DNA of 64,000 bases. Source: Clostridia bacterium (GTDB lineage: Bacteria > Bacillota > Clostridia > UMGS1883). Positions 35,231 through 55,283 of this stretch are shown piece after piece. Position numbers and translations under genes: made by a program. Each line of letters opens with the position of its first letter. The stretch's first letter is position 1. The notes beneath the pieces were generated by a model. That model saw nothing but the letters and a program-made list of their open reading frames with translations. It was not told the DNA's origin and did no database searches. The stretch is from assembly GCA_017451505.1 (NCBI GenBank), contig JAFTOF010000010.1:10172-74171 (forward strand), in the 5' to 3' direction.

Positions 35231-35503
35231 GTGCAGTAAGACTCGAACCCCTATTGGTTTTAACAGGGCAATTTTTCCTAAAACTGTGTCAAACCCCTTG
35301 ATAATACGGAAGTATTACCTGCGTGTTTTTCCTTGTTTTATAAAAAATTGCCACTGTTAGAACTGCTCGCATCTCAAACGGATTATTTTTAGGAGAATTT
35401 TAATGCGAAGGTCGCAGATGGGCTGTCGCCCTTCAAGACCGACAAATTGAAAGGCTTCAAAAATAATTCGTTTGAGACAACAGGTGTTCGAGTATTACTG
35501 CAC
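35231..35503 (+). ncRNA. 273-nt highly structured intergenic element (E1): a terminal stem enclosing two ~105-nt hairpins. It may be an unassigned structured RNA or a MITE-like repeat; the strand is uncertain
   Basis: The terminal stem (35231-35248 with 35486-35503) has 17 Watson-Crick pairs out of 18. The first hairpin arms (35258-35276 and 35343-35362) pair with one bulge. That hairpin is extended by TAAAAC/GTTTTA and capped by TAATAC-GGAA-GTATTA (35302-35317). The second hairpin arms (35372-35390 and 35459-35477) form 19 bp, including one G-U. Confidence 0.5.
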
Positions 35504-35518
35504 TAAGGCATATGAGAT

Positions 35519-35558
35519 ACCCTTTCGGAATAAAGATATTCCGAAAGGGTGTTTTTTT
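35519..35558 (+). terminator. intrinsic terminator downstream of E1; its U-tract abuts the next start codon
   Basis: 12-bp stem ACCCTTTCGGAA / TTCCGAAAGGGT with an 8-nt loop, then GTTTTTTT running directly into the ATG at 35559. Confidence 0.75.
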
Positions 35559-35951
35559 ATGAAAGAATATATGAGGCTTGTTTTTTTTGCTATGCTTTTA
35601 TGTGTAATATCATTCCCCTCGGAGAAAGCCACAGAGAATATAGGCGTGTTTTCACGCACCGTAAAGGAAATGGGATATGATGACGTGTCCGAAACTCCTT
35701 ATGAGGTGGCGGAATTTACCATACCCACAGAATTTAATGAGGTATATATCCGCTATAATGAATTGCTGAAAACTGCAGGCTATGACCTTTCACCATACAA
35801 GGGGAAGTCGTGTAAAAGATACACCTATCTTATTCCGTCTAAAAACGCTCGTGCTAACATAATTGTGTATGACGGAGAAATAATAGGCGGTGATATTTCA
35901 AGCATAACTCTTGACGGAATTATGATTCCTATTGAAAAAACGATTGGTTGA
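35559..35951 (+). CDS. small secreted/membrane-anchored protein (DUF4830-like, recalled from memory)
   Basis: Begins MKEYMRLVFFAMLLCVISF, which looks like a signal or anchor sequence; 130 aa. The longer track ORF (35472) would start inside E1. The start is uncertain; 35571 is also possible. Confidence 0.55.
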   Translation: MKEYMRLVFFAMLLCVISFPSEKATENIGVFSRTVKEMGYDDVSETPYEVAEFTIPTEFNEVYIRYNELLKTAGYDLSPYKGKSCKRYTYLIPSKNARANIIVYDGEIIGGDISSITLDGIMIPIEKTIG

Positions 35952-35992
35952 TGATATAATGAGATAAATGGCTGAAGAAAAGAGGAAGAACC

Positions 35993-36700
35993 ATGCGTCT
36001 TGATAAATTTGTGTCCGATGCGGCTGCTCTTACAAGGAGCGAATCAAGGAAAGCAATAAAAAGCAACAGGGTAACCGTTGATGGGACAGTTGCGAAGGAT
36101 GTTGCCATGCATATTCCCGAAAACGCATCTGTTTTTCTTGACGGCGAAGAAATATTTTATAAGAAGTTTGTCTATATCATGCTTAATAAGCCTCAAGGCT
36201 ATGTAAGTGCGACAGAGGATAAAAAGCAAAAAACCGTGCTTGAACTTCTTGATCCGTCTTACGCAAGGTATCAGCTTTTCCCCGTAGGAAGACTGGACAT
36301 TGATACTGAGGGATTCCTTCTTCTCACAAATGACGGGGAGACAGCTCACAATCTTCTTTCTCCTAATAAAAATTTCGGGAAGACATATTTCCTGCGGCTT
36401 GAAAAGGATATAAGCGACGAAGAAATGAATTTGCTTGAAAAAGGTGTAGACATAGGAGATTGTGTTACTAAAGAAGCAAAAGCAAAAAGAATAAGCTCAA
36501 ACGAAATAGAGCTTACGATAACCGAAGGAAAGTTTCATCAAATCAAGAGAATGGCAAAGGCTGTAGGGAATAATGTGGTGTATCTTAAACGCCTTTCATA
36601 CGGAGAGCTTTATCTTGATAAAAAGCTTGAAATCGGTGAATACAGGCCTCTTAGTGACAAGGAAACCCAATACCTATACAATGTTCACAAAAAAAAATAG
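35993..36700 (+). CDS. pseudouridine synthase (RsuA/RluB family, S4 domain)
   Basis: S4-like N-terminus MRLDKFVSDAAALTRSESRKAIKSNRVTVDG and the catalytic region GRLDIDTEGFLLLTNDG. Confidence 0.9.
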   Translation: MRLDKFVSDAAALTRSESRKAIKSNRVTVDGTVAKDVAMHIPENASVFLDGEEIFYKKFVYIMLNKPQGYVSATEDKKQKTVLELLDPSYARYQLFPVGRLDIDTEGFLLLTNDGETAHNLLSPNKNFGKTYFLRLEKDISDEEMNLLEKGVDIGDCVTKEAKAKRISSNEIELTITEGKFHQIKRMAKAVGNNVVYLKRLSYGELYLDKKLEIGEYRPLSDKETQYLYNVHKKK

Positions 36701-36802
36701 TAAATTTGTGAAATCGTAGTATATGAAAAAGGATGAATTTGTGTTAAAATGTAAGCAGTGTAAATTTGGTACATGTGTATATTTATTTAGGAGGTCAGTT
36801 AA

Positions 36803-37909
36803 ATGGCAGATTTACAATTAAAACATATTTATAAGAAATACAGCGGCGGTGTTGTAGCTGTATCCGACTTCACTCTTGACATTGAGGATAAGGAATTCGT
36901 TATCCTTGTTGGCCCTTCAGGTTGTGGTAAGTCTACAACTCTCAGAATGATCGCAGGTCTTGAAGAAATCAGCGAGGGTGAGCTTTACATCGGCGGCAAG
37001 CTTATGAATGACGTCGCTCCCAAGGATAGAGATATCGCAATGGTTTTCCAGAACTACGCTCTTTATCCCCATATGACAGTTTACGAGAACATGGCATTCG
37101 GTCTTAAACTCAGAAAGACTCCCAAGGAAGAAATTCAGAGAAGAGTTCAGGAAGCTGCTCGTATTCTTGATATCGAACATCTCCTTGAAAGAAAGCCCAA
37201 GGCTCTTTCAGGTGGTCAGCGTCAGCGTGTTGCTCTCGGTCGTGCAATCGTTCGTGAACCCCTCGTATTCCTTATGGACGAACCCCTTTCAAACCTTGAT
37301 GCTAAGCTTCGTGTTCAGATGAGATCTGAAATTTCAAAGCTTCATCACAGACTTCAGACAACATTCATCTACGTTACTCATGACCAGACAGAGGCTCTTA
37401 CAATGGGTACAAGAATCGTTGTTATGAAGGACGGTTTCGTTCAGCAGGTTGATTCTCCTCAGGTTCTTTACAACTTCCCCGTAAATATGTTCGTTGCAGG
37501 CTTCATCGGTTCACCCCAGATGAACTTCTGTGATGCTGAAATTGTAGAAAAGGGCAGCGACCTTTATGTTAAGTTCGGTTCCAACGAAGTTAAGCTTACT
37601 GCTGAAAAGGCAGAAAAGGCTAAGGCTTATGTAGGAAAGACAGTTGTTATGGGTATCCGTCCTGAAGACCTTTATGATGATGCAGATTCTATCGAGAAGT
37701 TCTCCGATGCAATCATCAGTGCAGAAGTAGAAGTAACAGAAATGATGGGTGCTGAAACCTACCTTTACGTAGTAGTTGACGGCATCAGCCTCATTGCTCG
37801 TGTTAAGTCTGACAGCACAGCAAAGGTTGGAGACTCTGTTCGTGTTGCTCTTGATTCATCTAAGATTCATCTCTTCGACAAGGAAACAGAAAAGACAATC
37901 ACAAACTAA
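36803..37909 (+). CDS. sugar ABC transporter ATP-binding protein (MalK/MsmK/MsmX/UgpC type), stand-alone
   Basis: Walker A GPSGCGKST, signature LSGGQRQR, Walker B FLMDEPLSNLD, and a C-terminal MalK-type regulatory/TOBE-like domain. No transporter partner genes are adjacent. Confidence 0.9.
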   Translation: MADLQLKHIYKKYSGGVVAVSDFTLDIEDKEFVILVGPSGCGKSTTLRMIAGLEEISEGELYIGGKLMNDVAPKDRDIAMVFQNYALYPHMTVYENMAFGLKLRKTPKEEIQRRVQEAARILDIEHLLERKPKALSGGQRQRVALGRAIVREPLVFLMDEPLSNLDAKLRVQMRSEISKLHHRLQTTFIYVTHDQTEALTMGTRIVVMKDGFVQQVDSPQVLYNFPVNMFVAGFIGSPQMNFCDAEIVEKGSDLYVKFGSNEVKLTAEKAEKAKAYVGKTVVMGIRPEDLYDDADSIEKFSDAIISAEVEVTEMMGAETYLYVVVDGISLIARVKSDSTAKVGDSVRVALDSSKIHLFDKETEKTITN

Positions 37910-37923
37910 TTTTAGTAAAAAAC

Positions 37924-37963
37924 AAAAATGCAAAGAAGCCTTTTGCTTCTTTGCATTTTTTTT
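37924..37963 (+). terminator. intrinsic terminator
   Basis: 12-bp stem ATGCAAAGAAGC / GCTTCTTTGCAT followed by T8. Confidence 0.8.
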
Positions 37964-38011
37964 ATTGTCTGAGAAATACTAACCAAAAATATTTTGAAAG
38001 GTTGGTTAGTA

Positions 38012-38167
38012 ATGAATGAAAATACACCCAATGACAGTATACTTCTTCCCGAAGGAATAGTGGAAGATGATCCTAATGTGTTATGGCTCACCAGAGCATA
38101 TTCTGATATAGTTACAGGAGAGCTTTTAAGAGAGGAAAAAGAGAAAAAAGGGAGGCAACGTCAATGA
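38012..38167 (+). CDS. hypothetical 51-aa ORF, apparently translationally coupled to gpr (not in the ORF track because it is under 60 aa)
   Basis: ATG at 38012. Translation: MNENTPNDSILLPEGIVEDDPNVLWLTRAYSDIVTGELLREEKEKKGRQRQ. Its TGA overlaps the gpr ATG as ATGA. A weak SD (GAAAGG) lies in the loop of a 9-bp inverted repeat (37978-37986 / 38002-38010). Confidence 0.3.
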   Translation: MNENTPNDSILLPEGIVEDDPNVLWLTRAYSDIVTGELLREEKEKKGRQRQ

Positions 38168-39036
38168 ATTTCAGAAGTGACCTTGCCTTGGAAAGGCGTG
38201 AAATGTTTGCAGGAGAAATTGCAGGGATTGAAAGCCTCCGTCACGATAACGACGGCATCAGTGTTACTCATGTTAAAATAAAGGATAACGATGCCGCAGA
38301 AAAAATAGGCAAACCCATAGGAAACTATGTAACCATAGAAATAAAGGATTTGTCACTCCCCGACGATGAAATCTGCGACAGAGCTGTAAATGCGGTTTCC
38401 GCGGAATTAAAAAAACTAATAAAGGGATTCTCCGATGCCTCCGTTTTGGTAGTGGGACTTGGAAATAGGGATATTACCCCCGATTCAATAGGACCAAAGG
38501 CGGTGGGAAAGCTTACGGTCACACGTCATATTTCAAAGGCTACAAATAACGAATTTAATCTTTCACTTCGCCCTGTAAGTGCCATTGCCCCCGGAGTTTT
38601 AGGGATAACAGGTATTGAAACAAGCGAAATAGTAAAAGGTGTTATAGAGTTTGTAAAGCCGCAACTTATAATAGCAATCGATGCTCTTGCCGCAAGAAAT
38701 CTAAGCCGTCTCGGCACCACGCTTCAAATTAGCGATACGGGAATAACCCCTGGAAGCGGGGTGGGTAATCACCGCAGAGCCTTAAATGAGGAAACCTTAG
38801 GCGTTCCCGTAATTGCCATAGGAGTACCTATGGTTGCAGATGTTTTAACTCTGGCAATGGATATTATACAGAAACTGCCAAAAAATGAACAAGAGGAAAA
38901 CGAGCAAAGGCTTGCACTGAATATTATTACCAAAAGGGGAGAGAACATGGTTGTTACTCCCAACGATGTGGACATTATCTCTCAACAGGCCTCCGATATA
39001 ATTGCCGATGCGATAAATATTGCATTGTATGAGTGA
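38164..39036 (+). CDS. gpr: GPR endopeptidase (spore germination protease)
   Basis: MNFRSDLALERREM..., GLGNRDITPDSIGPKAV and ISDTGITPGSGVGNHR are typical of GPR. GGGAGG lies 8 nt upstream. Confidence 0.9.
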   Translation: MNFRSDLALERREMFAGEIAGIESLRHDNDGISVTHVKIKDNDAAEKIGKPIGNYVTIEIKDLSLPDDEICDRAVNAVSAELKKLIKGFSDASVLVVGLGNRDITPDSIGPKAVGKLTVTRHISKATNNEFNLSLRPVSAIAPGVLGITGIETSEIVKGVIEFVKPQLIIAIDALAARNLSRLGTTLQISDTGITPGSGVGNHRRALNEETLGVPVIAIGVPMVADVLTLAMDIIQKLPKNEQEENEQRLALNIITKRGENMVVTPNDVDIISQQASDIIADAINIALYE

Positions 39037-39151
39037 AATTTTTGAATAAACAGCCCCGACTCTTGAACACAGCAACTTTTTATGTTATAATACGTGATGA
39101 AAAACCAAGCACAAAGGATTGTGTTTTAAGGAAAAGCGAAGGGGTACAAGA

Positions 39152-39766
39152 ATGAACATTATCAGTGCTCATATAACAAGGCTCAGAATTTCATCGGGAA
39201 TATCGCAAGAGCAGCTTGCTCAAAGAATCGGCACAGGTGTTACAACCGTCAAAAATATAGAGAGCGGATATCTTACCTCTCCTCCGACTATCATTGTGGA
39301 AAAACTGTCGGAGGTTTTCGGTGTTACCCCATTTGAGCTTATGAACTGCATCTCATTTTGTGTTGGAGAAAAGGGAAGAATGGTGCATGTAGTATCTGCA
39401 GTCAGCGGAGATAAGCCTTTCCTTGAAACAGCAAAAATAGTGGAAACCATCTTTATTGATGGGGACAGGTATGACGGAAACGAATATATGGGTGTAAAAA
39501 TGCCCGACAATGCTATGATTGATGCACACATTTGCCCTGATGACAGCGTTATTGTAAGGCAGGATGCCGTGATTAAAAACGGAGATATGGTTTTAGCCGT
39601 GTACAGCTGCGAGGACGGAGTTGTCAGAAGATATTATAAAAAGGGAAACATGATTTTGCTCAAGGCTGAAAACACAAGTGGACTTTATCCTGATATAGAA
39701 GTCGATGCCGAAAGTGACAGATTTAAGATATTGGGTAAAGTAATTACTTCCGTAAGGTCATATTAG
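39152..39766 (+). CDS. XRE-family HTH plus S24 (LexA/CI-like) domain protein, with both catalytic residues substituted
   Basis: HTH ISQEQLAQRIGTGVTTVKNIESG. The C-terminal domain is colinear with the LexA S24 domain, but GDSM reads DNAM (Ser to Ala) and the V-K-R lysine position reads VRRY (Lys to Arg). Confidence 0.75.
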   Translation: MNIISAHITRLRISSGISQEQLAQRIGTGVTTVKNIESGYLTSPPTIIVEKLSEVFGVTPFELMNCISFCVGEKGRMVHVVSAVSGDKPFLETAKIVETIFIDGDRYDGNEYMGVKMPDNAMIDAHICPDDSVIVRQDAVIKNGDMVLAVYSCEDGVVRRYYKKGNMILLKAENTSGLYPDIEVDAESDRFKILGKVITSVRSY

Positions 39767-39863
39767 AAATAAAAACAGTAAAAATAGCAAAACTTACTTG
39801 CATTTTATCGGAAATAGTAATATACTGTGATGTGGACGTTTTTACAGAAAGGAAGCGAAATTT

Positions 39864-41036
39864 ATGATATATTTGGATAATGCTGCCACAACCAAAGTGA
39901 AAGACAGCGTAATATCAGCTATGCTTCCGTACTTTACGGAAACTTTCGGAAATGCATCCTCAACATACACAACCCCCGGACAAGCCGCCAGAAAGGCACT
40001 TTCTGAGGCAAGGGAGAAGGTTGCAGGCTGTATCGGTGCAGACGCAAAGGAAGTTTTCTTCACAAGCGGAGGAAGCGAAGCGGATAACTGGGCAATAAAG
40101 GGCATAGCTCTTAAAAATAAAGATAAGGGAAATCATATTATCACAACTACGGTGGAACACCATGCAGTGCTTCACACCTGTGAGTTTTTGGAGAAGCAGG
40201 GTTTTAAAGTAACCTATGTTCCCGTAGATGAATTTGGTATGGTAAACCCCGAAGATATAAAAAATGCAATTACCGACGAAACGGTGCTTGTTTCCGTCAT
40301 GTTTGCAAATAATGAAATAGGAACAATTAATCCCATTAAGGAAATAGGCGAAATTTGCCGCGAAAAGGGAGTATATTTTCATACCGATGCCGTACAGGCG
40401 ACAGGTGCCGTTCCCATTGACGTAAAGGAAATGAATATTGATTTGCTTTCCATGTCGGCACATAAATTCCACGGACCTAAGGGCGTGGGTGCACTTTACA
40501 TCAGAAAAGGCGTAAAGATTGATAATCTGCTCCACGGCGGTGCACAGGAGCTTGGACGGCGTGCCACAACTGAAAACGTAGCAGGTATTGTCGGAATGGC
40601 ACAGGCACTGTCGGAAGCTTGTGAAAATATGCAGGAAAAGACAGAGAAGCTTATAAAACTCAGAGATAAGCTTATAGACGGCATTTTGGAAAGTGTCCCT
40701 TATACCCGCCTTAACGGACACAGAACAAAAAGGCTGCCCAATAATACAAGCTTCTGCTTCCGTTATATAGAGGGGGAGAGTTTGCTTCTCAGTCTTGATA
40801 TGATGGGGTATGTGGTTTCCAGCGGCAGTGCGTGTACGTCAGGCTCTCTCGACCCGTCCCATGTGCTTTTGGGAATCGGGCTTCCTCATGAAATTGCACA
40901 CGGCTCTATGCGTGCCTCGCTTTCGGAGTTTACTACAGAAGAAGAAATTGATTCCTTTATTAAAGCGGTTGGTCCCATCGTACAAAGACTCAGGGATATG
41001 TCACCTCTTTATGAAGAAGTGGAAAGAAAGGATTGA
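39864..41036 (+). CDS. nifS: cysteine desulfurase (NifS/IscS class I)
   Basis: IYLDNAATT, the PLP-lysine region SMSAHKFHGPKG, and the active-site loop SSGSACTSG. Confidence 0.9.
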   Translation: MIYLDNAATTKVKDSVISAMLPYFTETFGNASSTYTTPGQAARKALSEAREKVAGCIGADAKEVFFTSGGSEADNWAIKGIALKNKDKGNHIITTTVEHHAVLHTCEFLEKQGFKVTYVPVDEFGMVNPEDIKNAITDETVLVSVMFANNEIGTINPIKEIGEICREKGVYFHTDAVQATGAVPIDVKEMNIDLLSMSAHKFHGPKGVGALYIRKGVKIDNLLHGGAQELGRRATTENVAGIVGMAQALSEACENMQEKTEKLIKLRDKLIDGILESVPYTRLNGHRTKRLPNNTSFCFRYIEGESLLLSLDMMGYVVSSGSACTSGSLDPSHVLLGIGLPHEIAHGSMRASLSEFTTEEEIDSFIKAVGPIVQRLRDMSPLYEEVERKD

Positions 41037-41041
41037 AATAA

Positions 41042-41467
41042 ATGTACAGTGAAAAAGTAATGGATCATTTCTCCAATCCCAGAAACGTGGGAGAGCTTGC
41101 AGATGCAAACGCTGTGGGAACAGTTGGCAATGCAAAGTGCGGAGATATAATGAAGATTTATATGAAAATTGAGGACGATATCGTAAAGGATGTCAAATTC
41201 AAGACCTTCGGATGCGGTGCCGCTGTGGCAACCAGCTCTATGGCAACCGAGCTTGTTAAGGGAAAGACCATTGAGGAAGCTCTCGGACTTACCAATAAGG
41301 CCGTTGTAGAAGCTCTTGAAGGGCTTCCGCCTGCAAAAATTCATTGCAGTGTTCTTGCGGAAGAAGCTATTAAGGCGGCTATTCAGGACTACTACGATAA
41401 GAGCGGAATCGAAAAGAAAGTGGAATGCAGCGGTAATTGTGCACATTGTCACGGACACCACGAATAA
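41042..41467 (+). CDS. nifU: Fe-S cluster assembly scaffold (NifU N-terminal / IscU type)
   Basis: YSEKVMDHFSNPRNVG, GNAKCGD, FKTFGCGAA and IHCSVLA are scaffold cysteine motifs. The C-terminal tail is Cys/His-rich (CSGNCAHCHGHHE). Confidence 0.9.
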   Translation: MYSEKVMDHFSNPRNVGELADANAVGTVGNAKCGDIMKIYMKIEDDIVKDVKFKTFGCGAAVATSSMATELVKGKTIEEALGLTNKAVVEALEGLPPAKIHCSVLAEEAIKAAIQDYYDKSGIEKKVECSGNCAHCHGHHE

Positions 41468-41543
41468 ATGTGAAATTGAAAATGCATAATGCAAAATGTC
41501 GGGAGGGGGCGTAAAGAAGTCATGCTTTTTTACATCCTCTTTC

Positions 41544-42611
41544 TTATTTTTGCGTTTTTATAAAATCCGCTAATCCCTCGGCAAAATATCTTGCCCCTAA
41601 AAGTGCCTCATCCATGGTGTTTCCGTTTGTCCCGACCTCCACTATTATCGCGGCGGGAGCAAGCTGTTGGTTAAATCTCTGGCTTCGAAAATTTATCGGC
41701 CTCATTAAATCGGGATATATTGAGCTGATATGCTGTTGAAGCTTATACGCAAAGGTCATGTTTTCCTCCCAGTTTTTATGCTCAAGTCCGCTTACGTTAC
41801 TTCCTACCACAAGCATTATTTTTGCCGCATCCTCGGAATTAATTTTAGCGGTGTATTTCACTTTGCCGCCACCCTTGCTTTCAATGGCATCTCGGTGTAC
41901 ATCCAGCACAATTTTTATCGAGGGGTCATTTTTTATATAGTTGGAAACGTTTGCACCGCTTTTGTTATAGCTTCCGTTGTAGCTGGGGTAATCATTGATG
42001 GTGGTATCGTGATAAACTTTAATTCCATAGCTTTTGAGCGTTTTTTCAATTTCTTTACCCACCTTTACCATGTTAAAGCTTTTATCTGTAGTCCTGTCCG
42101 TATCAGTGGGAGAATAGGGGAATTTTTCTGACGGAGTATAGCTTTCCGTCGTATGTGTGTGTACTATGAGGACAGAAAAATCTTTTTTCATAAAGGGTAG
42201 CTGAGCAGAGCTATATTTTTCAGCATCTAAATTCAAATGTGTATTATTGGAAAACTTAACCTGAGGCATTTCGTTTGTAACCGTATTTTTTTTAGCTGCG
42301 GTGTGTGCGGCTGTGCTTTCAGCTTTGGTGTGAGTATCTTTTGTCGGAGAGCTTTTGGGGAGAGTCGTTTTTTCTGTATTAAGGAGCGAAAAAACACTTG
42401 TGTAATTAGGCTTTATATGACTGTGCGGAAGCTGTGAGCAAACAAAAAAATTAACCAAATCACGACTAAGCTTTATTTTGGGGACATTCTTAATTAACGA
42501 AGAACTTGTAATCACCATAGCGACAAATAAAGATAATGCAATCGGTATCCGAAGAAATTTTAAATTTATGGAAATTATAGAAGTTTTTTTCAAAAAATCG
42601 CCTCTTTTCAT
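41544..42611 (-). CDS. spoIIP: stage II sporulation protein P
   Basis: N-terminal membrane anchor, SpoIIP-like VLIVHTHTTESY, and an amidase-like C-terminal half (LDVHRDA...). Confidence 0.8.
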   Translation of the reverse strand: MKRGDFLKKTSIISINLKFLRIPIALSLFVAMVITSSSLIKNVPKIKLSRDLVNFFVCSQLPHSHIKPNYTSVFSLLNTEKTTLPKSSPTKDTHTKAESTAAHTAAKKNTVTNEMPQVKFSNNTHLNLDAEKYSSAQLPFMKKDFSVLIVHTHTTESYTPSEKFPYSPTDTDRTTDKSFNMVKVGKEIEKTLKSYGIKVYHDTTINDYPSYNGSYNKSGANVSNYIKNDPSIKIVLDVHRDAIESKGGGKVKYTAKINSEDAAKIMLVVGSNVSGLEHKNWEENMTFAYKLQQHISSIYPDLMRPINFRSQRFNQQLAPAAIIVEVGTNGNTMDEALLGARYFAEGLADFIKTQK

Positions 42612-42770
42612 AGAATATATATTGATTTATTTCAAAAAATATGCAATAATATGTATGTATGTGTAAAGAGAGTAATACTCGCTTTCATAAATTTGATTAT
42701 GTCTTATCGGCCCACGATAAGATATGCGTATGATAATAAACTTCTTGTGGGCAGAAAGGTTTTGTGGATT

Positions 42771-43634
42771 ATGTTGGTATCAGCAAAAGAAATGTTGGAA
42801 AAGGCTCGTGCAGGGCACTATGCAGTAGGTCAGTTTAATATTAACAATCTTGAATGGACAAAGGCTATTCTTCTCACTGCTCAGGAGCTTAATTCCCCCG
42901 TTATTTTGGGCGTAAGCGAGGGTGCAGGTAAATATATGGCAGGCTATAAAACCATCGTTGGCATGGTTAAAGGTATGATTGAAGGACTGGGAATCACAGT
43001 TCCTGTAGCACTTCACCTTGACCACGGCAGCTACGAGGGTGCTATGAAGTGTATTGAAGCAGGCTTTTCATCAGTTATGTTTGACGGAAGCCATTATCCC
43101 ATCGATGAAAACGTTGCAAAGACAACCGAACTTGTAAAGATTTGTGCCGAAAAAGGTCTCAGCCTTGAAGCTGAGGTAGGTGCAATCGGCGGCGAGGAAG
43201 ACGGCGTTGTAGGAAACGGCGACATTGCAGATCCCGCTGAATGTAAGTCTATTGCAGACCTTGGCGTTACAATGCTTGCAGCAGGTATCGGTAACATTCA
43301 CGGTAAATATCCCGAAAATTGGAAGGGTCTTGATTTTGACACTCTTGAAAAAATCAACGATGCTACAGGTGGAATTCCTCTTGTTCTTCATGGTGGCACA
43401 GGAATCCCCGCAGATATGATTAAGACAGCAATTAGCCTCGGTGTTGCAAAGATTAATGTAAACACAGAGTGCCAGCTTTCATTTGCAGCAGCTACAAGAA
43501 AGTATATAGAAGCAGGTAAGGATTTAGAAGGAAAGGGCTTTGATCCCAGAAAACTTCTTGCTCCCGGCTTTGAGGCGATTAAGGAAACCGTTAAGGAAAA
43601 AATGGAGCTTTTCGGAAGCGTAAACAAAGCGTAA
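42771..43634 (+). CDS. fba: class II fructose-1,6-bisphosphate aldolase
   Basis: MLVSAKEMLEKARAGHYAVGQFNINNLEW, LHLDHG, and GNIHGKY...LVLHGGTG. The upstream part of the track ORF (42651) has no aldolase similarity. Confidence 0.9.
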   Translation: MLVSAKEMLEKARAGHYAVGQFNINNLEWTKAILLTAQELNSPVILGVSEGAGKYMAGYKTIVGMVKGMIEGLGITVPVALHLDHGSYEGAMKCIEAGFSSVMFDGSHYPIDENVAKTTELVKICAEKGLSLEAEVGAIGGEEDGVVGNGDIADPAECKSIADLGVTMLAAGIGNIHGKYPENWKGLDFDTLEKINDATGGIPLVLHGGTGIPADMIKTAISLGVAKINVNTECQLSFAAATRKYIEAGKDLEGKGFDPRKLLAPGFEAIKETVKEKMELFGSVNKA

Positions 43635-43651
43635 TAAACTAAACAAAGCGT

Positions 43652-43685
43652 ACAGGGGAGGCATGTTGTTTCCCCTGTTTGATTT
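43652..43685 (+). terminator. intrinsic terminator of fba
   Basis: ACAGGGGA / TCCCCTGT stem followed by TTTGATTT. Confidence 0.6.
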
Positions 43686-43749
43686 GTAAAATAAGGCACA
43701 GCACGGAGAGATTGGTGATGGCTGTGCTAACTGAATATGAGGGAAAAAT

Positions 43750-44385
43750 ATGAATAAGAAGAAACTTTCCAGACAGGCACTCAAGAGATTGCCTGTATAT
43801 ATGTCGTATCTGAAAACATTGGAGAAAACGGAAACGGAATACGTATCATCTGCCGCCGTGGCACAGGCACTTGACCTTAATGATGTTCAGGTGAGAAAGG
43901 ACTTGGCGGCAGTTTGCAAAAGCTCGGGTATACCCAAAAGGGGCTTTGCCGTACGTGACCTTATAAACGGGATTTCCGACTTTTTAGGATATGGCAGTGG
44001 AAATGACGCAATACTTATAGGTGCGGGAAAGTTAGGAATGGCACTGATGAGCTACCGTGGATTTGATAACTATGGTATAAATATTGTAGCGGCATTTGAT
44101 ACCCGCCCTGAGGTGATTGACAATGAAAGAGTATATGAACTTTCACAAATTAAGGAAATCTGTAAAAAGTACGATATAAAAATCGGTATAATTACAGTTC
44201 CTGTAGATTCGGCACAGAGGGTGTGTGATATGCTTGTTGAGAGTGGTATTCTGGCAATATGGAATTTTGCACCCATCCATATCAAAGCACCTGCCAACAT
44301 TTTGGTGCAGAACGAAAATATGGCATCGTCACTGGCACTTCTCTCAAATCACCTTAGACAGAAAATGTTGAACGATACACAGTAA
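43750..44385 (+). CDS. rex: redox-sensing transcriptional repressor Rex
   Basis: RLPVYMSYL winged-helix N-terminus and the Rossmann motif ILIGAGKLGMAL; 211 aa. Confidence 0.9.
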   Translation: MNKKKLSRQALKRLPVYMSYLKTLEKTETEYVSSAAVAQALDLNDVQVRKDLAAVCKSSGIPKRGFAVRDLINGISDFLGYGSGNDAILIGAGKLGMALMSYRGFDNYGINIVAAFDTRPEVIDNERVYELSQIKEICKKYDIKIGIITVPVDSAQRVCDMLVESGILAIWNFAPIHIKAPANILVQNENMASSLALLSNHLRQKMLNDTQ

Positions 44386-44447
44386 TCCATATCCTAAAAG
44401 AGGAATTTCTGTGTTGCCCGTTCTTAAATATGTTAGGGGAAAAAGAA

Positions 44448-45368
44448 ATGAACACTTTACATCTTAAGTACATTATCGAGGTGGAAAAAACAGGGTCAAT
44501 ATCCAAAGCAGCGGAAAATCTGTATATGAACCAGCCGCAGCTTTCAAAGGCTATACGCGAGCTTGAAGAATCGGTAGGAATTTCGATTTTCAAAAGAAGC
44601 TCAAAGGGGGTCGTTCCTACTACCGTAGGGGCGGAATTTATTATGGATGCAAAGGGTATTATTGCCCAGCTAAAGCGTATGGAAACCATGTATAACCCCA
44701 AGAAAAGCGAAATGGTGACGCTTGATGTGGCGTCGTCACGTTGCGAGTATATTTCAGATGCTTTTTCTCTTTTTCTCAAAAAAATTAAAAACGAATCGAA
44801 AGAAAAAATAACCTTCAGGGAAACTAACACAATGCGTGCCATAAAGAATGTTGCCACGGGCGAGAATAACCTGGGAATTATAAAATATAATGCCGCCTAT
44901 GAGCAATATTTTACACAGATGCTGGAGGAAAGGGAGCTTCAATATGAAACTCTCTGGGAATATGACGAGCTTATTGCTGTATCGGCAAAAAGTAAGCTGG
45001 CAAAGCTTTCCTTGGTGGAGGAAAGCCATCTTGAAGGTATGACACAGATTCTTTTCGGGGACAATATTATGCATTACGGCCGTTCTGCACGCAGTGTCAA
45101 GTCGGCCCGCGAAACTGATAATATGCATCACATTTTCGTGTATGAGAGAGAGGGCATGAAAAGTGCACTTCTCGGTGACGAATGTGCATATGCCAGGATA
45201 ACACCGCCTCCAAAAGGATATTATGATGAAAACAAAATTACAATTATTCCCTTTAAAAGTGATGACAGTAAGTACAAAGATGTGATTTTCTATAGGAAAG
45301 ATTACAAAAAAAGCGAGACGGACAGTCTTTTTATAGAAACGCTTAAAGATGTAATAGCTACATTATAA
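44448..45368 (+). CDS. LysR family transcriptional regulator
   Basis: MNTLHLKYIIEVEKTGSISKAAENLYMNQPQLSKAIRELE is a LysR-type HTH, followed by a substrate-binding-like C-terminal domain. Confidence 0.8.
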   Translation: MNTLHLKYIIEVEKTGSISKAAENLYMNQPQLSKAIRELEESVGISIFKRSSKGVVPTTVGAEFIMDAKGIIAQLKRMETMYNPKKSEMVTLDVASSRCEYISDAFSLFLKKIKNESKEKITFRETNTMRAIKNVATGENNLGIIKYNAAYEQYFTQMLEERELQYETLWEYDELIAVSAKSKLAKLSLVEESHLEGMTQILFGDNIMHYGRSARSVKSARETDNMHHIFVYEREGMKSALLGDECAYARITPPPKGYYDENKITIIPFKSDDSKYKDVIFYRKDYKKSETDSLFIETLKDVIATL

Positions 45369-45414
45369 AATGAGGGAGTGAAAAAGGTTGACTTTTTCAC
45401 TCCCTCATTTTTTT
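45367..45414 (+). terminator. intrinsic terminator after the LysR gene
   Basis: Perfect 17-bp stem (45370-45386 with 45392-45408), loop GTTGA, followed by a T run. Confidence 0.8.
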
Positions 45415-45479
45415 GCAAAAGAAAGAAAAAATGGTAATGCTATATCGATATAGGAATAACGATATACAAAAAAAGCATC

Positions 45480-45508
45480 TTTACAAATTAAAAAAATGCC
45501 ATTATAAT
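45480..45508 (+). promoter_or_regulatory. probable sigma-A promoter of adhE
   Basis: TTTACA (45480-45485), a 17-nt spacer, then TATAAT (45503-45508). Confidence 0.5.
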
Positions 45509-45551
45509 AATATCATAATACATTATACCATTATAGAAAGGAATTATTATA

Positions 45552-48161
45552 ATGAGTAAAGATAGAGTTATAATTGACAGTGTAGAAAAGCTCGAAGCTG
45601 AACTTAAGAAGATTAGAGGCGTGCAGAAAACCTTTGCTTCTTTTACTCAGGAGCAGGTTGATAAAATTTTCCTTGCGGCAGCCACTGCGGCAAACAGAGA
45701 GCGTATCTCTCTTGCTAAATTGGCAGTAGAAGAAACCGGAATGGGTGTTGTTGAGGATAAGGTTATCAAAAATCACTATGCGGCAGAATATATCTATAAT
45801 GCTTACAAGGACACAAAGACCTGTGGTATTATTGAGGAGGATAAGGCGTACGGCACTGTGAGAATCGCCGAGCCTATCGGTGTAATCGCCGCAGTTATCC
45901 CTACTACAAATCCCACGTCAACTGCAATTTTCAAATGTCTTATTGCACTTAAAACAAGAAACGCAATTGTTATCAGTCCCCACCCAAGGGCGAAGAACAG
46001 CACCATTGCAGCGGCAAAGATTGTGCTTGATGCCGCAGTAAAAGCGGGTGCACCCGAAGGGATTATAAGCTGGATTGATGTTCCCAGCCTTGATATGACA
46101 AATACAGTTATGAAAGAAGCCGACATTATCCTTGCCACAGGCGGCCCCGGCATGGTAAAGGCGGCATATTCCAGCGGTAAGCCTGCTCTCGGTGTTGGTG
46201 CAGGTAATACCCCTGCAATCATTGACGAAAGTGCCGACCTTCTTATGGCGGTAAACTCAATTATTCATTCCAAAACCTTTGACAATGGTATGATTTGTGC
46301 CTCCGAGCAAAGTGTCATCGTGGAAAAGAGTATTTATGACAAGGTAAAGAAGGAATTTGCTGACCGTGGATGCTATTTCTTAAATGATGACGAAATTGAA
46401 AAAGTAAGAAAGACTATTATTATAAACGGTGCACTCAATGCAAAGATTGTTGGTCAGAAAGCACATACAATCGCTTCCCTTGCAGGTGTAGAGGTTCCCG
46501 AAAATGCAAAAATCCTCATCGGTGAGGTTGAAAGCGTAGAGCTTTCCGAGGAATTCGCACATGAGAAGCTTTCACCCGTTCTTGCAATGTATAAGGCAGA
46601 GAATTTTGCCGATGCACTTGATAAGGCTGAAAAGCTTGTAGAGGACGGAGGCTTTGGCCATACTGCTTCTCTTTATGTAGATGCGGTAGCAAAGAGAGAG
46701 CTTATAGAGGAATTTTCTCTCCGTATGAAAGCCTGCCGTATTCTTGTAAATACACCCTCATCACATGGTGGTATCGGTGACCTTTATAACTTCAAGCTCG
46801 CTCCCTCACTGACATTGGGCTGCGGTTCATGGGGCGGTAACTCGGTTTCCGAAAACGTTGGTGTTAAACACCTTCTCAACATTAAAACAGTTGCAGAAAG
46901 AAGGGAAAATATGCTTTGGTTCAGAGCACCTGAAAAAATTTATATCAAGAAGGGCTGTCTTCCTGTTGCCCTTGATGAGCTTAAAACAGTTATGGGCAAA
47001 AAGAGAGCCTTTATTGTAACAGATACATTCCTCTATGAAAACGGGTATACAAAGGCAATCACAGACAAGCTCGATGAAATGGGTATTGTTCATACCACAT
47101 TCTTTAACGTAGCTCCCGACCCCACATTGGCTTCCGCAAAAGAGGGTGCGGCACAAATGGCTGCATTTAAACCCGACACAATTATTGCTCTCGGCGGTGG
47201 CAGTGCAATGGACGCGGCTAAAATCATGTGGGTAATGTACGAGCATCCCGAGGCTGATTTCATGGATATGGCAATGAGATTCATAGACATCAGAAAGAGA
47301 GTATACACATTCCCCAAAATGGGTGAAAAGGCATACTTTATTGCAATTCCCACATCGGCAGGTACAGGTAGTGAGGTAACTCCCTTCGCTGTTATTACAG
47401 ATGAACAGACAGGAGTTAAATACCCCCTTGCTGACTATGAACTTCTTCCGAATATGGCAATCATTGATACAGATTTCCATATGTCAGCACCCAAGGGACT
47501 TACTGCAGCAAGCGGTATCGATGCGGTGACACATGCCCTTGAAGCATATGCGTCAATGCTTGCAACAGATTATACAGATTCTCTTGCATTGGGATCACTT
47601 AAAACAGTGTTTGAATATCTTCCCCGTGCATATGAAAACGGACAGACAGACGTAAAGGCACGTGAAAAAATGGCTAATGCCGCTACAATGGCAGGTATGG
47701 CATTCGCAAATGCTTTCCTTGGAGTATGTCACTCCATGGCACATAAGTTGGGTGCATTCCACCATCTTCCTCATGGCGTAGCAAATGCCCTCATGATTGA
47801 AGAGGTTCTCCGCTTCAATGCTTCTGAAACTCCTGTTAAGATGGGTACCTTCTCCCAGTATGACCATCCTCATACGCTTGCACGTTATGCAGAAATTGCA
47901 GAGCATCTTGGAGTAAAAGGCAAGACAGACGAGGATAAATTCGAGGGGCTCATCAAGCTTATCCGCGACCTTAAGGAAAAGGTAGGCATCAAGAACTCTA
48001 TCCGTGACTACGGCATTGACGAAAAGAACTTCCTTGAAAACCTTGATGAAATGACCGAGCAGGCATTTGATGACCAGTGTACAGGTGCAAATCCCCGCTA
48101 TCCCCTTATGAGCGAAATTAAAAAGATGTATCTTAACGCATATTACGGAGGTGCTCAGTAA
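45552..48161 (+). CDS. adhE: bifunctional acetaldehyde-CoA/alcohol dehydrogenase
   Basis: 869 aa. The N-terminal ALDH domain carries the active-site region (GMICASEQ). The C-terminal iron-ADH domain carries GGGSAMDAAK and histidine clusters. Confidence 0.95.
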   Translation: MSKDRVIIDSVEKLEAELKKIRGVQKTFASFTQEQVDKIFLAAATAANRERISLAKLAVEETGMGVVEDKVIKNHYAAEYIYNAYKDTKTCGIIEEDKAYGTVRIAEPIGVIAAVIPTTNPTSTAIFKCLIALKTRNAIVISPHPRAKNSTIAAAKIVLDAAVKAGAPEGIISWIDVPSLDMTNTVMKEADIILATGGPGMVKAAYSSGKPALGVGAGNTPAIIDESADLLMAVNSIIHSKTFDNGMICASEQSVIVEKSIYDKVKKEFADRGCYFLNDDEIEKVRKTIIINGALNAKIVGQKAHTIASLAGVEVPENAKILIGEVESVELSEEFAHEKLSPVLAMYKAENFADALDKAEKLVEDGGFGHTASLYVDAVAKRELIEEFSLRMKACRILVNTPSSHGGIGDLYNFKLAPSLTLGCGSWGGNSVSENVGVKHLLNIKTVAERRENMLWFRAPEKIYIKKGCLPVALDELKTVMGKKRAFIVTDTFLYENGYTKAITDKLDEMGIVHTTFFNVAPDPTLASAKEGAAQMAAFKPDTIIALGGGSAMDAAKIMWVMYEHPEADFMDMAMRFIDIRKRVYTFPKMGEKAYFIAIPTSAGTGSEVTPFAVITDEQTGVKYPLADYELLPNMAIIDTDFHMSAPKGLTAASGIDAVTHALEAYASMLATDYTDSLALGSLKTVFEYLPRAYENGQTDVKAREKMANAATMAGMAFANAFLGVCHSMAHKLGAFHHLPHGVANALMIEEVLRFNASETPVKMGTFSQYDHPHTLARYAEIAEHLGVKGKTDEDKFEGLIKLIRDLKEKVGIKNSIRDYGIDEKNFLENLDEMTEQAFDDQCTGANPRYPLMSEIKKMYLNAYYGGAQ

Positions 48162-48901
48162 TGAAAGTTATATTTGAAAGACCTGATAAAACCATATATC
48201 GTGACGGTGACTTTACCGTAAAGGTATTTAACGAAAATTATTCAAAGGCCAATGTTCTTAACGAAGCTCTTAATCAGGCTCGTGTTGAAGAAACCGGGCT
48301 TAAAGTTCCCAAGCTTCACGAGGTAAAGAAAATTGACGGTAAATGGGCAATCATTACCGATTATATCGAGGGTAAAACTCTTGAAGAGCTGATGAAAGAA
48401 AATCCCGAAAAAATGGACGAATATATTGAAAGACTGGTAAATATTCAGACTGATGTGCTTTCTCATCAGGTTACACACCTTAACAAGCTCAGGGATAAGA
48501 TGCACGCGAAAATTTCATCTGCGGATATAAATGCCACAATCCGTTACGAGCTTCATACCCGTCTTGATGCTACTCCAAAGCATAATAAGGTATGCCACGG
48601 GGATTTCCACCCCTCCAACATAATCATCACGGAAAATGATGAAGCATACATTATCGACTGGGCACACGTAACCCGTGGTAACGGTGCGGCAGATGCAGCA
48701 AGGGTATATCTCCTCTTTACCCTTGAGGGTAAAAATGATGCTGCACAAAAGTATCTTGAACTTTTCTGCAAAAAAACCGATACTGCAAAGCAGTATGTTC
48801 AGAAGTGGATGCCCATTGTTGCGGCTTCTCAGCTTACAAAGGGTGTTAAAGGGGAGGAAGAACTTCTCCATAGCTGGATAGATGTAGTAGATTACGAATA
48901 A
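48161..48901 (+). CDS. aminoglycoside phosphotransferase / choline-kinase-like (protein-kinase-fold) family protein
   Basis: Catalytic loop CHGDFHPSNIII and the downstream IIDW motif; 246 aa. Its ATG overlaps the adhE TAA as TAATG. Confidence 0.7.
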   Translation: MKVIFERPDKTIYRDGDFTVKVFNENYSKANVLNEALNQARVEETGLKVPKLHEVKKIDGKWAIITDYIEGKTLEELMKENPEKMDEYIERLVNIQTDVLSHQVTHLNKLRDKMHAKISSADINATIRYELHTRLDATPKHNKVCHGDFHPSNIIITENDEAYIIDWAHVTRGNGAADAARVYLLFTLEGKNDAAQKYLELFCKKTDTAKQYVQKWMPIVAASQLTKGVKGEEELLHSWIDVVDYE

Positions 48902-48903
48902 TG

Positions 48904-48934
48904 AAAACACCTGCCCAAGAGGCAGGTGTTTTTA
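48904..48934 (+). terminator. intrinsic terminator
   Basis: ACACCTGCC-CAAGA-GGCAGGTGT followed by TTTT. Confidence 0.8.
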
Positions 48935-48958
48935 TTGTAAAAAATCTGGTTTGGCTAT

Positions 48959-49035
48959 AAAAACAGCCCAAAAAATGTAAAAATATCCAAAAAACATGAA
49001 AAATTGTGTAAAATTGCCTAAAACCGACGCAAAAA
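48959..49035. repeat. array of eight helically phased A-tracts (predicted intrinsically curved DNA) upstream of the glgB promoter
   Basis: A4-A6 runs start at 48959, 48970, 48979, 48989, 48999, 49010, 49020 and 49031. The spacings are 11, 9, 10, 10, 11, 10 and 11 nt. Confidence 0.7.
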
Positions 49036-49071
49036 TTCTCGCATTTTTTGGTTAAATTTCCCTAAAACCGT

Positions 49072-49100
49072 TTGACTAATCGAAATATATTTGGTAAAAT
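49072..49100 (+). promoter_or_regulatory. probable sigma-A promoter of glgB (extended -10)
   Basis: TTGACT (49072-49077), a 17-nt spacer ending in TGG, then TAAAAT (49095-49100). Confidence 0.55.
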
Positions 49101-49137
49101 AATAACAAGAGAAAAAATATCAAGCGGAGGCGTATTA

Positions 49138-51084
49138 ATGACAACTAAGAAAAAGAAGACAGTTAAGAACGAAAATCCATTTATATCAACCCTTCAGCTT
49201 GCTCAGTTTAATAACGGAACGAATTTCAGAGCTTACGAATTTATGGGAGCCATTCCGTCAGAGATTTACGGCGAGCGTGGGTACAGCTTTGCCGTGTGGG
49301 CACCCAATGCCAAAAGCGTAAGCGTTGTGGGCGATTTCAACGGCTGGGATACTACCATGCATCCCATGAATCCGCAGGGAAGTTCGGGTGTATGGCACTG
49401 CTTTATTAAAAATGTGAAAGAGGGGCAGTGCTATAAATTTTATATAGAAGCAAAAGATGGCACCGCTCATTACAAAGCAGACCCCTATGCCCGTCTTGCA
49501 CAGCTACCGCCCGAAACGGCATCTGTCACATATGATATTTCCGGTTTTAAATGGACTGATGAGGGCTGGATGAAGAAAAGGTCGGAAAGTGCTCCTTATT
49601 CCAAGCCTATGCTGATTTATGAAATGCATCTGGGCAGTTGGCGTACGAAACCCGATGGCTCATTAAAAAATTATACCGAGGCTGCAGATGAACTTTGCAG
49701 TTATCTTAAGGAAATGAGCTATACCCATGTGGAACTTATGCCTCTTACGGAATTTCCCTTTGACGGAAGCTGGGGCTATCAGGTGACAGGCTATTTTGCC
49801 GCTACCTCGCGTTACGGCACTCCCAAGGAATTTATGTATTTTGTGAATAAATGCCATGAAAACGGCATAAGTGTTATTATGGACTGGGTTCCGGCACATT
49901 TTCCTCGTGATGCTCATGCTCTTGCAAAATTTGACGGTACGCCTATATATGAATACCCCAACCCCCTTAAGGGTGAACATAAGGAATGGGGAACGCTGGT
50001 CTTTGACTATGGCAGAGAGGAAGTAGTTTCGTTCCTCCTTTCAAGTGCGTTTTACTGGCTGGATATGTTCCATATAGACGGACTTAGGGTAGATGCTGTT
50101 TCAAGCATGCTCTACCTTGATTATGGCAGACAGGAGTATATGCCCAATAAATACGGCGGCAAGGAGAATCTGGAGGCAATCGAGTTTTTGCAAAAGCTTA
50201 ATATGCTTGCTTTTGAGCATTACCCCAATATCCTTATGATTGCCGAGGAATCCACGGCATGGCCGAAGGTGACCAATCCTGTAAGTGATGGCGGACTGGG
50301 CTTTAACTTCAAGTGGAATATGGGCTGGATGAATGATATGCTCCGCTATATGAGCATGGATCCCTATTTCAGGCGTGATAATCATAACCTGCTGACTTTC
50401 TCCATGATGTATGCCTTTTCCGAAAACTATATACTGCCATTGTCACATGATGAAGTTGTACACGGGAAAGGTTCCCTTATACAGAAGATGGCAGGGCTTT
50501 ACGGACAGAAGTTTGACTCACTGCGTGCCTTTATGATGTTTAAGATGGCACATCCGGGTAAAAAGCTTCTCTTTATGGGCGGCGAGATAGCTCAGTTTAT
50601 AGAATGGCGTTATTATGAACAGCTTGAATGGAATCTGCTCGATATACAAAAGCATAGAGAGTACCATGAGTTTATGAAAGAGCTTAACCGCTTTTATAAT
50701 GAGAACAAGCCCTTCTGGGAAATTGAAGATAGCTGGGACGGCTTTGAATGGATAAATGCCGATGATCGTGACAGAAGTGTGGTTTCCTTCGTAAGGCGTG
50801 GTAAAAAGAAAACCGACGAGGTGATAGTGATTTGTAACTTTACCCCCGTTGAGTATAAAAACTATGTTGTCGGAGTGCCCAGACAGGGAATATATGCCGA
50901 AGCACTTTCAAGTGACAGTATCAAGTTTGGCGGAAGTGGCAAGAAAATCAAACCAATTTCAGCTAAGAAAAAACCGCAGAATACAATGCCCTACAGCATC
51001 GAGATTGACATTCCGCCGATGAGTGCATTGTATCTTAAAAGAACCCAGAAGCGTGCCGCTTCATCTACTTCGCGTACCAACTGA
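49138..51084 (+). CDS. glgB: 1,4-alpha-glucan branching enzyme
   Basis: GH13 branching-enzyme motifs (FAVWAPNA, YEMHLGSW, DWVPAHF, GLRVDAVSSMLY, MIAEEST, LSHDEVVHGK). The ATG at 49138 follows GCGGAGG. Confidence 0.95.
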   Translation: MTTKKKKTVKNENPFISTLQLAQFNNGTNFRAYEFMGAIPSEIYGERGYSFAVWAPNAKSVSVVGDFNGWDTTMHPMNPQGSSGVWHCFIKNVKEGQCYKFYIEAKDGTAHYKADPYARLAQLPPETASVTYDISGFKWTDEGWMKKRSESAPYSKPMLIYEMHLGSWRTKPDGSLKNYTEAADELCSYLKEMSYTHVELMPLTEFPFDGSWGYQVTGYFAATSRYGTPKEFMYFVNKCHENGISVIMDWVPAHFPRDAHALAKFDGTPIYEYPNPLKGEHKEWGTLVFDYGREEVVSFLLSSAFYWLDMFHIDGLRVDAVSSMLYLDYGRQEYMPNKYGGKENLEAIEFLQKLNMLAFEHYPNILMIAEESTAWPKVTNPVSDGGLGFNFKWNMGWMNDMLRYMSMDPYFRRDNHNLLTFSMMYAFSENYILPLSHDEVVHGKGSLIQKMAGLYGQKFDSLRAFMMFKMAHPGKKLLFMGGEIAQFIEWRYYEQLEWNLLDIQKHREYHEFMKELNRFYNENKPFWEIEDSWDGFEWINADDRDRSVVSFVRRGKKKTDEVIVICNFTPVEYKNYVVGVPRQGIYAEALSSDSIKFGGSGKKIKPISAKKKPQNTMPYSIEIDIPPMSALYLKRTQKRAASSTSRTN

Positions 51085-51173
51085 ATCTAAATTCGACAAA
51101 TGTTGCTCGCGAAAAAAACAGAGGTTTCTACACAAAAAATAAAGTTAGTAACCGTGACATAATATGCCGAGTA

Positions 51174-51445
51174 GCCGAAAGAGAGTAATCCAAGCCCGCT
51201 TCAAACGGCGAAATTTCGGTATCTTTCGGCTTGTCATCTTTGCAAGGCACAAAGCCTTGCTTCATCTTCCGCACCAAAATCTACTCAAAATTTCATCCGT
51301 TTGGAGTCGTAGAATTTTAAGAGAGCGGATTTTTGGTTGCGCAAGGCAAAAACGCAGGGAATACTTTGTGTATTTCCGAGTATTTAAACACAGCGAAAGC
51401 GGAAATCCGCCTCTGAAAATCGGGTTCGGATTATTCTCTTTCGGC
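51174..51445 (+). ncRNA. 272-nt highly structured intergenic element (E2) between glgB and glgC, with the same topology as E1
   Basis: The terminal stem (51174-51198 with 51421-51445) has 22 Watson-Crick pairs, 2 G-U pairs and 1 mismatch over 25 positions. The first enclosed hairpin spans 51199-51306, with arms CTTCAAACGG..AAATTT / AAATTT..CCGTTTGGAG and an apical GCAAGGC-ACAAA-GCCTTGC. The second spans 51322-51414, with arms AGAGCGGATTT / AAATCCGCCTCT carrying one bulge. Confidence 0.5.
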
Positions 51446-51467
51446 TAAAAGAGAGGAAGGATTTTTA

Positions 51468-55280: not shown

Positions 55281-55283
55281 TAT

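Follow-up and report, generated by a model that had tools for sequence, protein, structure and literature searches.

The window analysed here, a stretch of 64,000 nucleotides (nt) from contig JAFTOF010000010.1 of a Clostridia bacterium (assembly GCA_017451505.1), contains two palindromic intergenic sequences, E1 (35231-35503) and E2 (51174-51445), which belong to one family of non-coding elements of about 275 bases found in gut Clostridia. The family inserts at intergenic TA dinucleotides, in either orientation, and has been recently mobile; across about 50% divergence its members keep their base pairing and their length, but not their terminal sequence. E1 and E2 probably represent two subfamilies of a non-autonomous, TA-duplicating transposon moved in trans, which resembles the small transposable elements with inverted repeats known as MITEs and is under an unusual structural constraint. 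The family is apparently undescribed: no account of it was found in the literature, either by topic or by sequence string.

Anatomy, folding and homology of E1 and E2

E1, identified from sequence, fold, alignment and profile, is 273 nt long, belongs to the GTGCAG subfamily and lies on the plus strand, which serves as the "sense" reference for orientations within the family. The 5′ arm of its outer stem (35231-35255, +), one half of the terminal inverted repeat, carries the conserved inner box TCGAACCCC 12 nt from the end. It is followed by hairpin A (35257-35363, +), which is 107 nt long, has the conserved apex block CCTTGATAATACGGAAGTATTACCTGCG...TTTTCCTTG and is stabler on the minus strand, and then by the 106-nt hairpin B (35372-35477, +), which is stabler on the plus strand, with base TCTCAAACGG/CGTTTGAGA and apex GCAGATGGGCTGTCGCCCTTCAAG, and scores 91.9 bits with the hairpin B covariance model. 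The 3′ arm, with the GTTCGAG box, closes the element (35478-35503, +). On the left, E1 is flanked by a TA (35228-35229) and an extra A, which together form the TAA stop codon of rpsR (35228-35230, +); on the right lies another TA (35504-35505, +), the second copy of the duplicated target.

E2, recognized by the same four lines of evidence, is 272 nt long, belongs to the GCCGAAAG subfamily and has its sense orientation on the minus strand. Its hairpin B (51199-51306, -; 108 nt) is the homologue of hairpin B of E1 and scores 85 bits on the minus strand, and its hairpin A (51314-51420, -; 107 nt), homologous to hairpin A of E1, pairs better on the plus strand. The TA flanks are at 51172-51173 and 51446-51447 (+), so that the two sites read TAA-E1-TA(A) and TA-E2-TA. 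A lone open reading frame (ORF) across E2 (51164-51448) is not conserved in the family alignment.

In both elements the fold is a long terminal stem around two hairpins, each about 107 nt in size. The minimum free energy is -113.2 kcal/mol for E1 (z = -11.8) and -110.2 kcal/mol for E2 (z = -9.0), and in neither case did any of 200 dinucleotide shuffles fold as well. The coordinates and sizes given in the initial annotation of this DNA were therefore exact, and the topology described there, a terminal stem enclosing two hairpins, was confirmed, with folding far beyond chance. The terminal inverted repeats of E1 and E2 rank among the longest short-range inverted repeats of the window (arms at most 400 nt apart), and a profile built from the family recovered E1 and E2 as its only copies within the 64 kb.

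The two elements are homologous, in inverted relative orientation. Global alignment of E1(+) with E2(-) gave z = 16.4 against shuffles, with 168 identical positions, whereas E1(+) against E2(+) gave z = 1.4; thus E1 and E2 lie in opposite orientation, a point that had been left open, and the plus/plus comparison was rejected as the homologous one. Each hairpin aligns with its counterpart (z = 10.3 for A with A, 8.7 for B with B), identity is about 55-62%, depending on the alignment, and 22 of 65 consensus pairs are compensated between the two elements, with both sides changed. The proposal of a single family with E1 and E2 as diverged members is thus borne out, and the stem built on TCAAACGG...CGTTTGA, noticed in both, is homologous and corresponds to the base of hairpin B. 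As reported, both elements also contain AGAATTTTAA, GCG(C)AAGG and CGCAG..GGG, but these short blocks had been compared in the non-homologous orientation, in which the likeness is not significant (z = -0.5). This last value is all that could be cited for the notion that E1 and E2 are unrelated palindromic intergenic sequences, alike by chance in AT-rich DNA, and it lends that notion no support; with the alignment in inverted orientation, the dozens of related copies found elsewhere and the covariation statistics given below, chance resemblance is refuted and retains practically no probability.

The wider family and its conserved structure

Scanning metagenomes with the conserved apex block of hairpin A yielded 60 loci, and profile searches with mapping of the ends added at least seven subfamilies to those of E1 and E2. 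They are 271-277 nt long and arranged in the same way: TA, terminal inverted repeat, hairpin A of about 107 nt, short linker, hairpin B of about 107 nt, inverted repeat, TA. The termini of these subfamilies are unrelated (AGCTGACGGGAG, GGGCGAAGGGGG, GGCTTAGTGGAC, GGTAAAGGGAG, (T)GCGTTGATTGACAAGGG, ACCGAAACGAAG and GGCATGAGAGAG). Every copy has terminal inverted repeats of 22-30 bp; the outer 12-16 bp vary between subfamilies and are followed, in most of them, by the inner box YCGAACNCC, which pairs with GGNGTTCGR on the other arm. In a BLAST search of plasmids and phages, one unannotated copy was identified between convergent genes on the 861-kb replicon pMM35_01 of Vescimonas fastidiosa MM35, a cultured isolate; this copy places the family in the Oscillospiraceae and indicates that current annotation gives the element no name.

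A structural alignment of 33 distinct full-length copies has a three-way junction as its consensus. Paired cells amount to 95.3%, as compared with 75.5% in column shuffles and at most 49% when the partners are slid by one to three columns. Double-sided changes, the compensatory substitutions that the initial annotation had proposed to look for, occur in 59 of 79 pairs, a figure reached in none of 500 shuffles, and the covariation score is 0.564 against 0.199 in the control. All helices contribute; in the terminal stem, 20 of 21 pairs have changed on both sides. The structural alignment, also proposed as a check, therefore scores above its shuffled controls, further members exist, and the structure is clearly under selection at the level of the family. 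What is conserved of the primary sequence lies mainly in loops and junctions. Hairpin A has GGTTTT...AAAACTGC at its base, and the other blocks are ACTGCGTYAAA, CTTGAAAATACGNAAGTATTCCCTGCG...TTTNCCTTG, ATTTTCGAGNGATTTT, GCAGATGGGCTGNCGCCCATCAAG and AAAAGCGCCGAAAAG.

The two strands of the whole element fold about equally well, with a mean difference of 1.2 kcal/mol and the sense strand better in 16 of the 33 copies. The single hairpins have a strict polarity: the antisense strand gives the stabler hairpin A and the sense strand the stabler hairpin B, each in all 33 copies and by a mean of 11.1 and 10.7 kcal/mol, respectively, so that for each hairpin the favoured strand is the one with its 3′ end at the nearer terminus. 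The wobble pairs, counted on the sense strand with a symmetric pair set, follow the same pattern, with 13 G.T and 124 A.C in hairpin A, 87 G.T and 4 A.C in hairpin B, and 35 G.T and 38 A.C in the terminal stem; several wobble positions covary through wobble intermediates. Since a constraint acting on the duplex only would give both mismatch types equally often, some single-stranded form, either DNA or transcript, seems to be under selection. From this arrangement we infer a two-fold symmetric design that works in either insertion orientation.

Hairpins A and B may also be ancient inverted copies of one module, although this stays a suggestion, because outside the E2 type the comparison of hairpin A (reverse complement) with hairpin B was not significant in pairwise and profile tests. 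The hints are the equal length of the hairpins (106-109 nt), apexes that on the favoured strands both read GCAG-stem-loop-CAAG, a hairpin B with an A-type apex in one subfamily (L024b), and the comparison of antisense hairpin A with sense hairpin B, which gave z = 5.1 in E2 and 4.6-5.1 in the E2 type; the hairpin B covariance model found marginal matches of 18-26 bits, exclusively on the antisense strand of E2-type hairpin A.

Shorter relatives of 162-172 nt contain a single hairpin with the hairpin A apex block (GGTAATACACAAAGTATTRCCTGCG), and most of them have TA flanks and terminal stems of their own; they were found at L039, L061, L065 and L074, at L042, at L079, and at L029, L055, L059, L067, L068 and L080, the last six, from human gut, being located after a tRNA gene. 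All six of the single-hairpin relatives tested favour the strand of hairpin A, by up to 35 kcal/mol. They may represent the minimal unit of a superfamily, and solo copies of hairpin A also occur.

Some full-length copies deviate from the common plan. Two carry an extra 40-50 nt or so at the apex of hairpin B (L024:6733-7049, -, and L083:2431-2737, +); thus this apex tolerates insertion, the rest of the element being fixed within 3 nt. The L083 record (MT837146.1, "UNVERIFIED: Bacteriophage sp.", from human faeces) came from the phage collection searched by BLAST; it holds its full copy in bacterial-looking sequence and may not be viral. Neither the E1 terminus nor the apex block had a match in scans of viral contigs. 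In one subfamily, L053:966-1241 (+) and L048:3803-4079 (-) share an identical 37-nt prefix and 162-nt suffix, while the inner 70 nt or so of hairpin A are inverted, with 69 of 70 positions identical after reverse-complementing; the segment has been flipped between the arms of its own stem, which in L048 brings the favoured strands of hairpins A and B onto the same strand.

Insertion at TA and recent mobility

Filled and empty versions of two sites were compared. At the rpsR site, an exact look-up of the ribosomal protein S18 sequence provided ten contigs from ruminant-gut metagenomes and metagenome-assembled genomes (MAGs). An identical E1 is present at rpsR in two of them (L003 and L006), whereas the spacer between rpsR and the terminator is uninterrupted in eight related contigs, all encoding the identical S18 protein. 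The empty sites read ...GCTGAATAAGCATATGGGATACCC... (also ...GCTGAATAAGCATATG...), and the filled site of the window reads GCTGAGTAA[E1]TAAGGCATATGAGATACCC. The second site is at rpmB, where an E2-type copy lies between the promoter and the Shine-Dalgarno sequence in the related contig L009 (TTTCTA[element]TAAGGAGG), and the site is empty, with the sequence TTCCTAAGGAGG, in the window and in six other contigs; here the comparison is that of a clean TA duplication. The idea that the TA flanks are a target-site duplication, advanced when the elements were first noticed, is thus supported at both sites. Across the family, TA was found at 47 of 61 scored element ends, and 21 of 29 sites have it on either side. 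An exact-protein look-up with GlgC, aimed at an empty E2 site, found nothing on record.

A pattern scan, using one genome per species, detected 11 further copies in six MAGs of Clostridia/Oscillospiraceae, some of the E1 type (ends TA followed by GTGCAGTAAGACT...) and some of the E2 type (TA followed by GCCGAAAGAGA...). Identity is 93-99% within either type and about 55% between them. Near-identical copies occupy unrelated loci in several ruminant-gut MAGs of different species, and the two types may occur together in one genome. The initial annotation had read the pattern of E1 and E2 as selection on structure rather than recent transposition; the structural selection holds, but its opposition to transposition does not, since near-identical copies at unrelated loci are the very outcome which that annotation had named as contrary to a structure-only reading. 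Structural constraint and recent transposition both apply to this family. Three features typical of MITEs are present: duplication of TA, inverted repeats at the termini, and a small non-coding element that recurs in near-identical form at unrelated loci.

Several loci show irregular surroundings. In L012 the right flank (5790-5809, - strand) has, directly after the TA, GTGCAGTA, eight bases identical to the 5′ end of the element itself; they may be the remnant of an adjacent copy, or chance. L038:6523-6665 is a second, partial copy, inverted and directly beside a full one. Contigs L063, L023/L057 and L058/L064/L025/L037/L075 share one left flank (HAD phosphatase/PckA), which leads through the element into three right flanks; hairpin B differs among these contigs, which points to recombination between copies or to chimeric assembly. 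At least one contig, L018, ends inside an element, located at 1-246, as expected of a repeat that breaks assemblies.

Candidate movers, known systems and genomic context

TA duplication is a hallmark of IS630/Tc1-mariner transposases, although small duplications including TA also occur in some IS5 subgroups. An IS630/Tc1-mariner-type DDE enzyme acting in trans is therefore the first candidate and the most economical one; it is proposed as the likeliest mover from the TA duplication alone. A transposase encoded elsewhere in the genome would move the element, reading the inner box and/or the folded hairpins and cutting at a fixed distance, at TA. The terminal bases are most likely not read, because conservation extends to the inner box, loop blocks, helices and length, but not to the outermost positions.

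A number of observations weigh against a TA-duplicating element moved by such an enzyme. The termini have no bases in common across subfamilies, which is atypical if a DDE transposase must read them, and a site recognized purely as a double strand would not be expected to have a strand-specific wobble pattern. The duplication at the E1 junction is not clean, as there is an extra A on the left and an extra G on the right with respect to the relatives. Different subfamilies coexist in one genome (in the window, in the MAGs of L012, L021 and L009 and of L016 and L017, and in contig L024), and the apparent copy number is low, with one to three copies detected per MAG and one in the 861-kb replicon of V. 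fastidiosa. Metagenomes were scanned for the E1 terminus joined to sequence from outside the element, as expected of an autonomous parent, with no matches, and clustering of the ORFs within 3 kb of all copies gave no recurrent non-orthologous ORF and no transposase; the ORFs beside the copies are orthologous housekeeping contexts, e.g., PckA, HAD phosphatase and MurC. Solo termini 1-2 kb apart were not found in 0.6 Mb of loci, nor extra termini in the window or in the fetched loci, and none of the long-range inverted repeats of the window is suggestive of an insertion sequence.

Free termini, coexisting subfamilies, low copy number and strand-specific hairpins make an enzyme specific for structure or for single strands a real alternative, if an unlikely one. 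The element would be mobile in this case too, with its hairpins recognized on folded single-stranded DNA by an HUH/Y1-like enzyme or an unknown recombinase, and the two TAs would be cleavage or crossover dinucleotides rather than the product of a staggered cut. The strict polarity of both hairpins, the single-strand preference of the shorter relatives, the termini that are always paired and free in sequence, and the location of the conserved blocks in loops and apexes would all fit; moreover, comparisons of empty and filled sites cannot separate a TA duplication from a TA carried by the element. IS200/IS605-type elements, however, have no terminal inverted repeats and form their end hairpins on the same strand, whereas here such repeats are present and the two hairpins prefer opposite strands, and no HUH gene (Y1/RAYT) was seen in the flanks of any copy. 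A broader form of the same idea, a two-fold-symmetric element defined by its structure and recognized in the form of folded single-stranded DNA or RNA by an enzyme not so far connected with any insertion-sequence family, is doubtful, though not negligible; if true, it would mean a new mode of end recognition or transposition, with the single-hairpin relatives of about 165 nt as the minimal unit.

It is quite improbable that the element is primarily a functional structured RNA, i.e., a small RNA or a cis-acting stabilizer or processing site of mRNAs, that happens to spread. The strong covariation at constant length across about 50% divergence, wobble pairs that covary through G-U intermediates, the location of both E1 and E2 within transcription units, and a 3′-proximal hairpin that is well paired in either direction of read-through are what such an RNA would show. 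On the other hand, the absence of a net strand preference, the mixed orientation of the copies with respect to flanking ORFs, and promoter and terminator scans that gave nothing convincing in either element disfavour a conventional RNA gene. Gene context is likewise unrelated between copies, and presence or absence varies among close relatives, together with a target duplication. Rfam 15 returned no family at the gathering score for E1, E2 and two GC-rich subfamilies, with chance-level matches at E<=10; the best of these, mir-87 (26.4 bits against a gathering score of 49, E = 0.0013), was taken as chance. There is no tRNA or tmRNA in the window, and a tRNA-like reading of the GGTTCGA box was set aside, this box being one arm of the outer stem.

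The closest likeness of a TA-duplicating element moved in trans is with bacterial MITEs, such as RUP of Streptococcus pneumoniae, which is linked to IS630-Spn1, Correia/NEMIS of Neisseria, and ERIC of enterobacteria; the eukaryotic Stowaway (Tc1/mariner) MITEs provide the general model. As these are described, RUP, Correia/NEMIS and ERIC are also small, non-coding and intergenic, have terminal inverted repeats and a duplicated TA, occur in either orientation, are often co-transcribed with their neighbours and can form stable hairpins. Unlike them, the present family is larger, with a fixed length of about 275 bp, and its fold is a three-way junction whose two hairpins are equal in size (about 107 nt) and opposite in strand polarity; from one subfamily to another its termini change completely, with pairing and internal loop blocks kept, its copy number appears low, and no cognate transposase was found. 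What sets this MITE-like family apart from these descriptions of known MITEs is that a conserved three-way junction, whose hairpins have opposite polarity, defines it and terminal sequence does not.

The IS200/IS605-derived PATEs and the REPINs (RAYT) are mobilized by HUH Y1 enzymes that act on single-stranded DNA hairpins. If structure is recognized in the present family, it would share with them hairpin recognition, strict strand polarity and non-autonomous movement in trans and, with REPINs, two modules in inverted orientation. However, PATEs and REPINs are much shorter, have no terminal inverted repeats or target duplications, form their hairpins on one strand and show GTAG-type REP heads; membership was rejected on the basis of the long terminal inverted repeats, the TA on both sides and the hairpins on opposite strands. 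Integron attC sites, which are recognized as folded single strands, similarly keep structure and a few unpaired bases and not sequence, but they are single hairpins of 57-141 bp with R′′/R′ core sites, located beside gene cassettes and an integrase; here the neighbours are housekeeping genes (rpsR, rpmB, glgBC, murC/spoVG, and carbonic anhydrase in V. fastidiosa), and attC was rejected on these grounds, the core-site motif not having been searched. Structured RNAs such as raiA and HEARO, the omega RNA of IscB, also have a few hundred nt, several stems and strong covariation; the present family differs from Rfam RNAs of this kind in matching none of them, in its target duplication and presence/absence polymorphism, in its occurrence in both orientations and in having no net strand preference.

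In the window, E1 begins directly after the TAA stop codon of rpsR (ribosomal protein S18, PF01084; 34979-35230, +). A terminator-like G+C-rich hairpin with a T-run (ACCCTTTCGGAAT...ATTCCGAAAGGGTGTTTTTTT; 35519-35559, +) lies downstream; it is present at the empty sites too and therefore predates E1, which places the element within the rpsF-ssb-rpsR transcription unit, so that E1 would be carried in the 3′ untranslated part of that transcript. E2 is located in the glgB-glgC spacer of a glgBCDAP-like cluster, between a glgB-like branching enzyme gene (49072-51084, +) and glgC (glucose-1-phosphate adenylyltransferase; 51468-52694, +); its end lies 22 nt ahead of the ATG and just upstream of the ribosome-binding site of glgC. 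Inserts are evidently tolerated inside essential operons.

Two other features of the window were recorded. A tetrahydrofolate (THF) riboswitch aptamer at 57834-57954 (+), the only Rfam family in the window at the gathering score (70.1 bits against 36), has a long insertion in one helix and lies just downstream of the glycogen phosphorylase gene (55258-57813). A very large ORF of 1689 amino acids (12579-17648, +) matches Pfam only at its N terminus, with a copper amine oxidase-like domain (PF07833) characteristic of clostridial cell-surface proteins.

Copies at the 3′ end of rpsR, in the 5′ leader of rpmB and in the glgB-glgC spacer may alter mRNA stability or translation of these genes. The elements also break metagenome assemblies, and current pipelines leave them unannotated. 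Miniature transposons are normally recognized by conserved terminal sequences copied from a parent, whereas in this family the termini drift freely. The family, which occurs in rumen and human-gut Oscillospiraceae including the cultured V. fastidiosa, thus offers a widespread, defined test case for a mobile element specified by shape and not by sequence, and for the involvement of single-stranded intermediates or transcripts.

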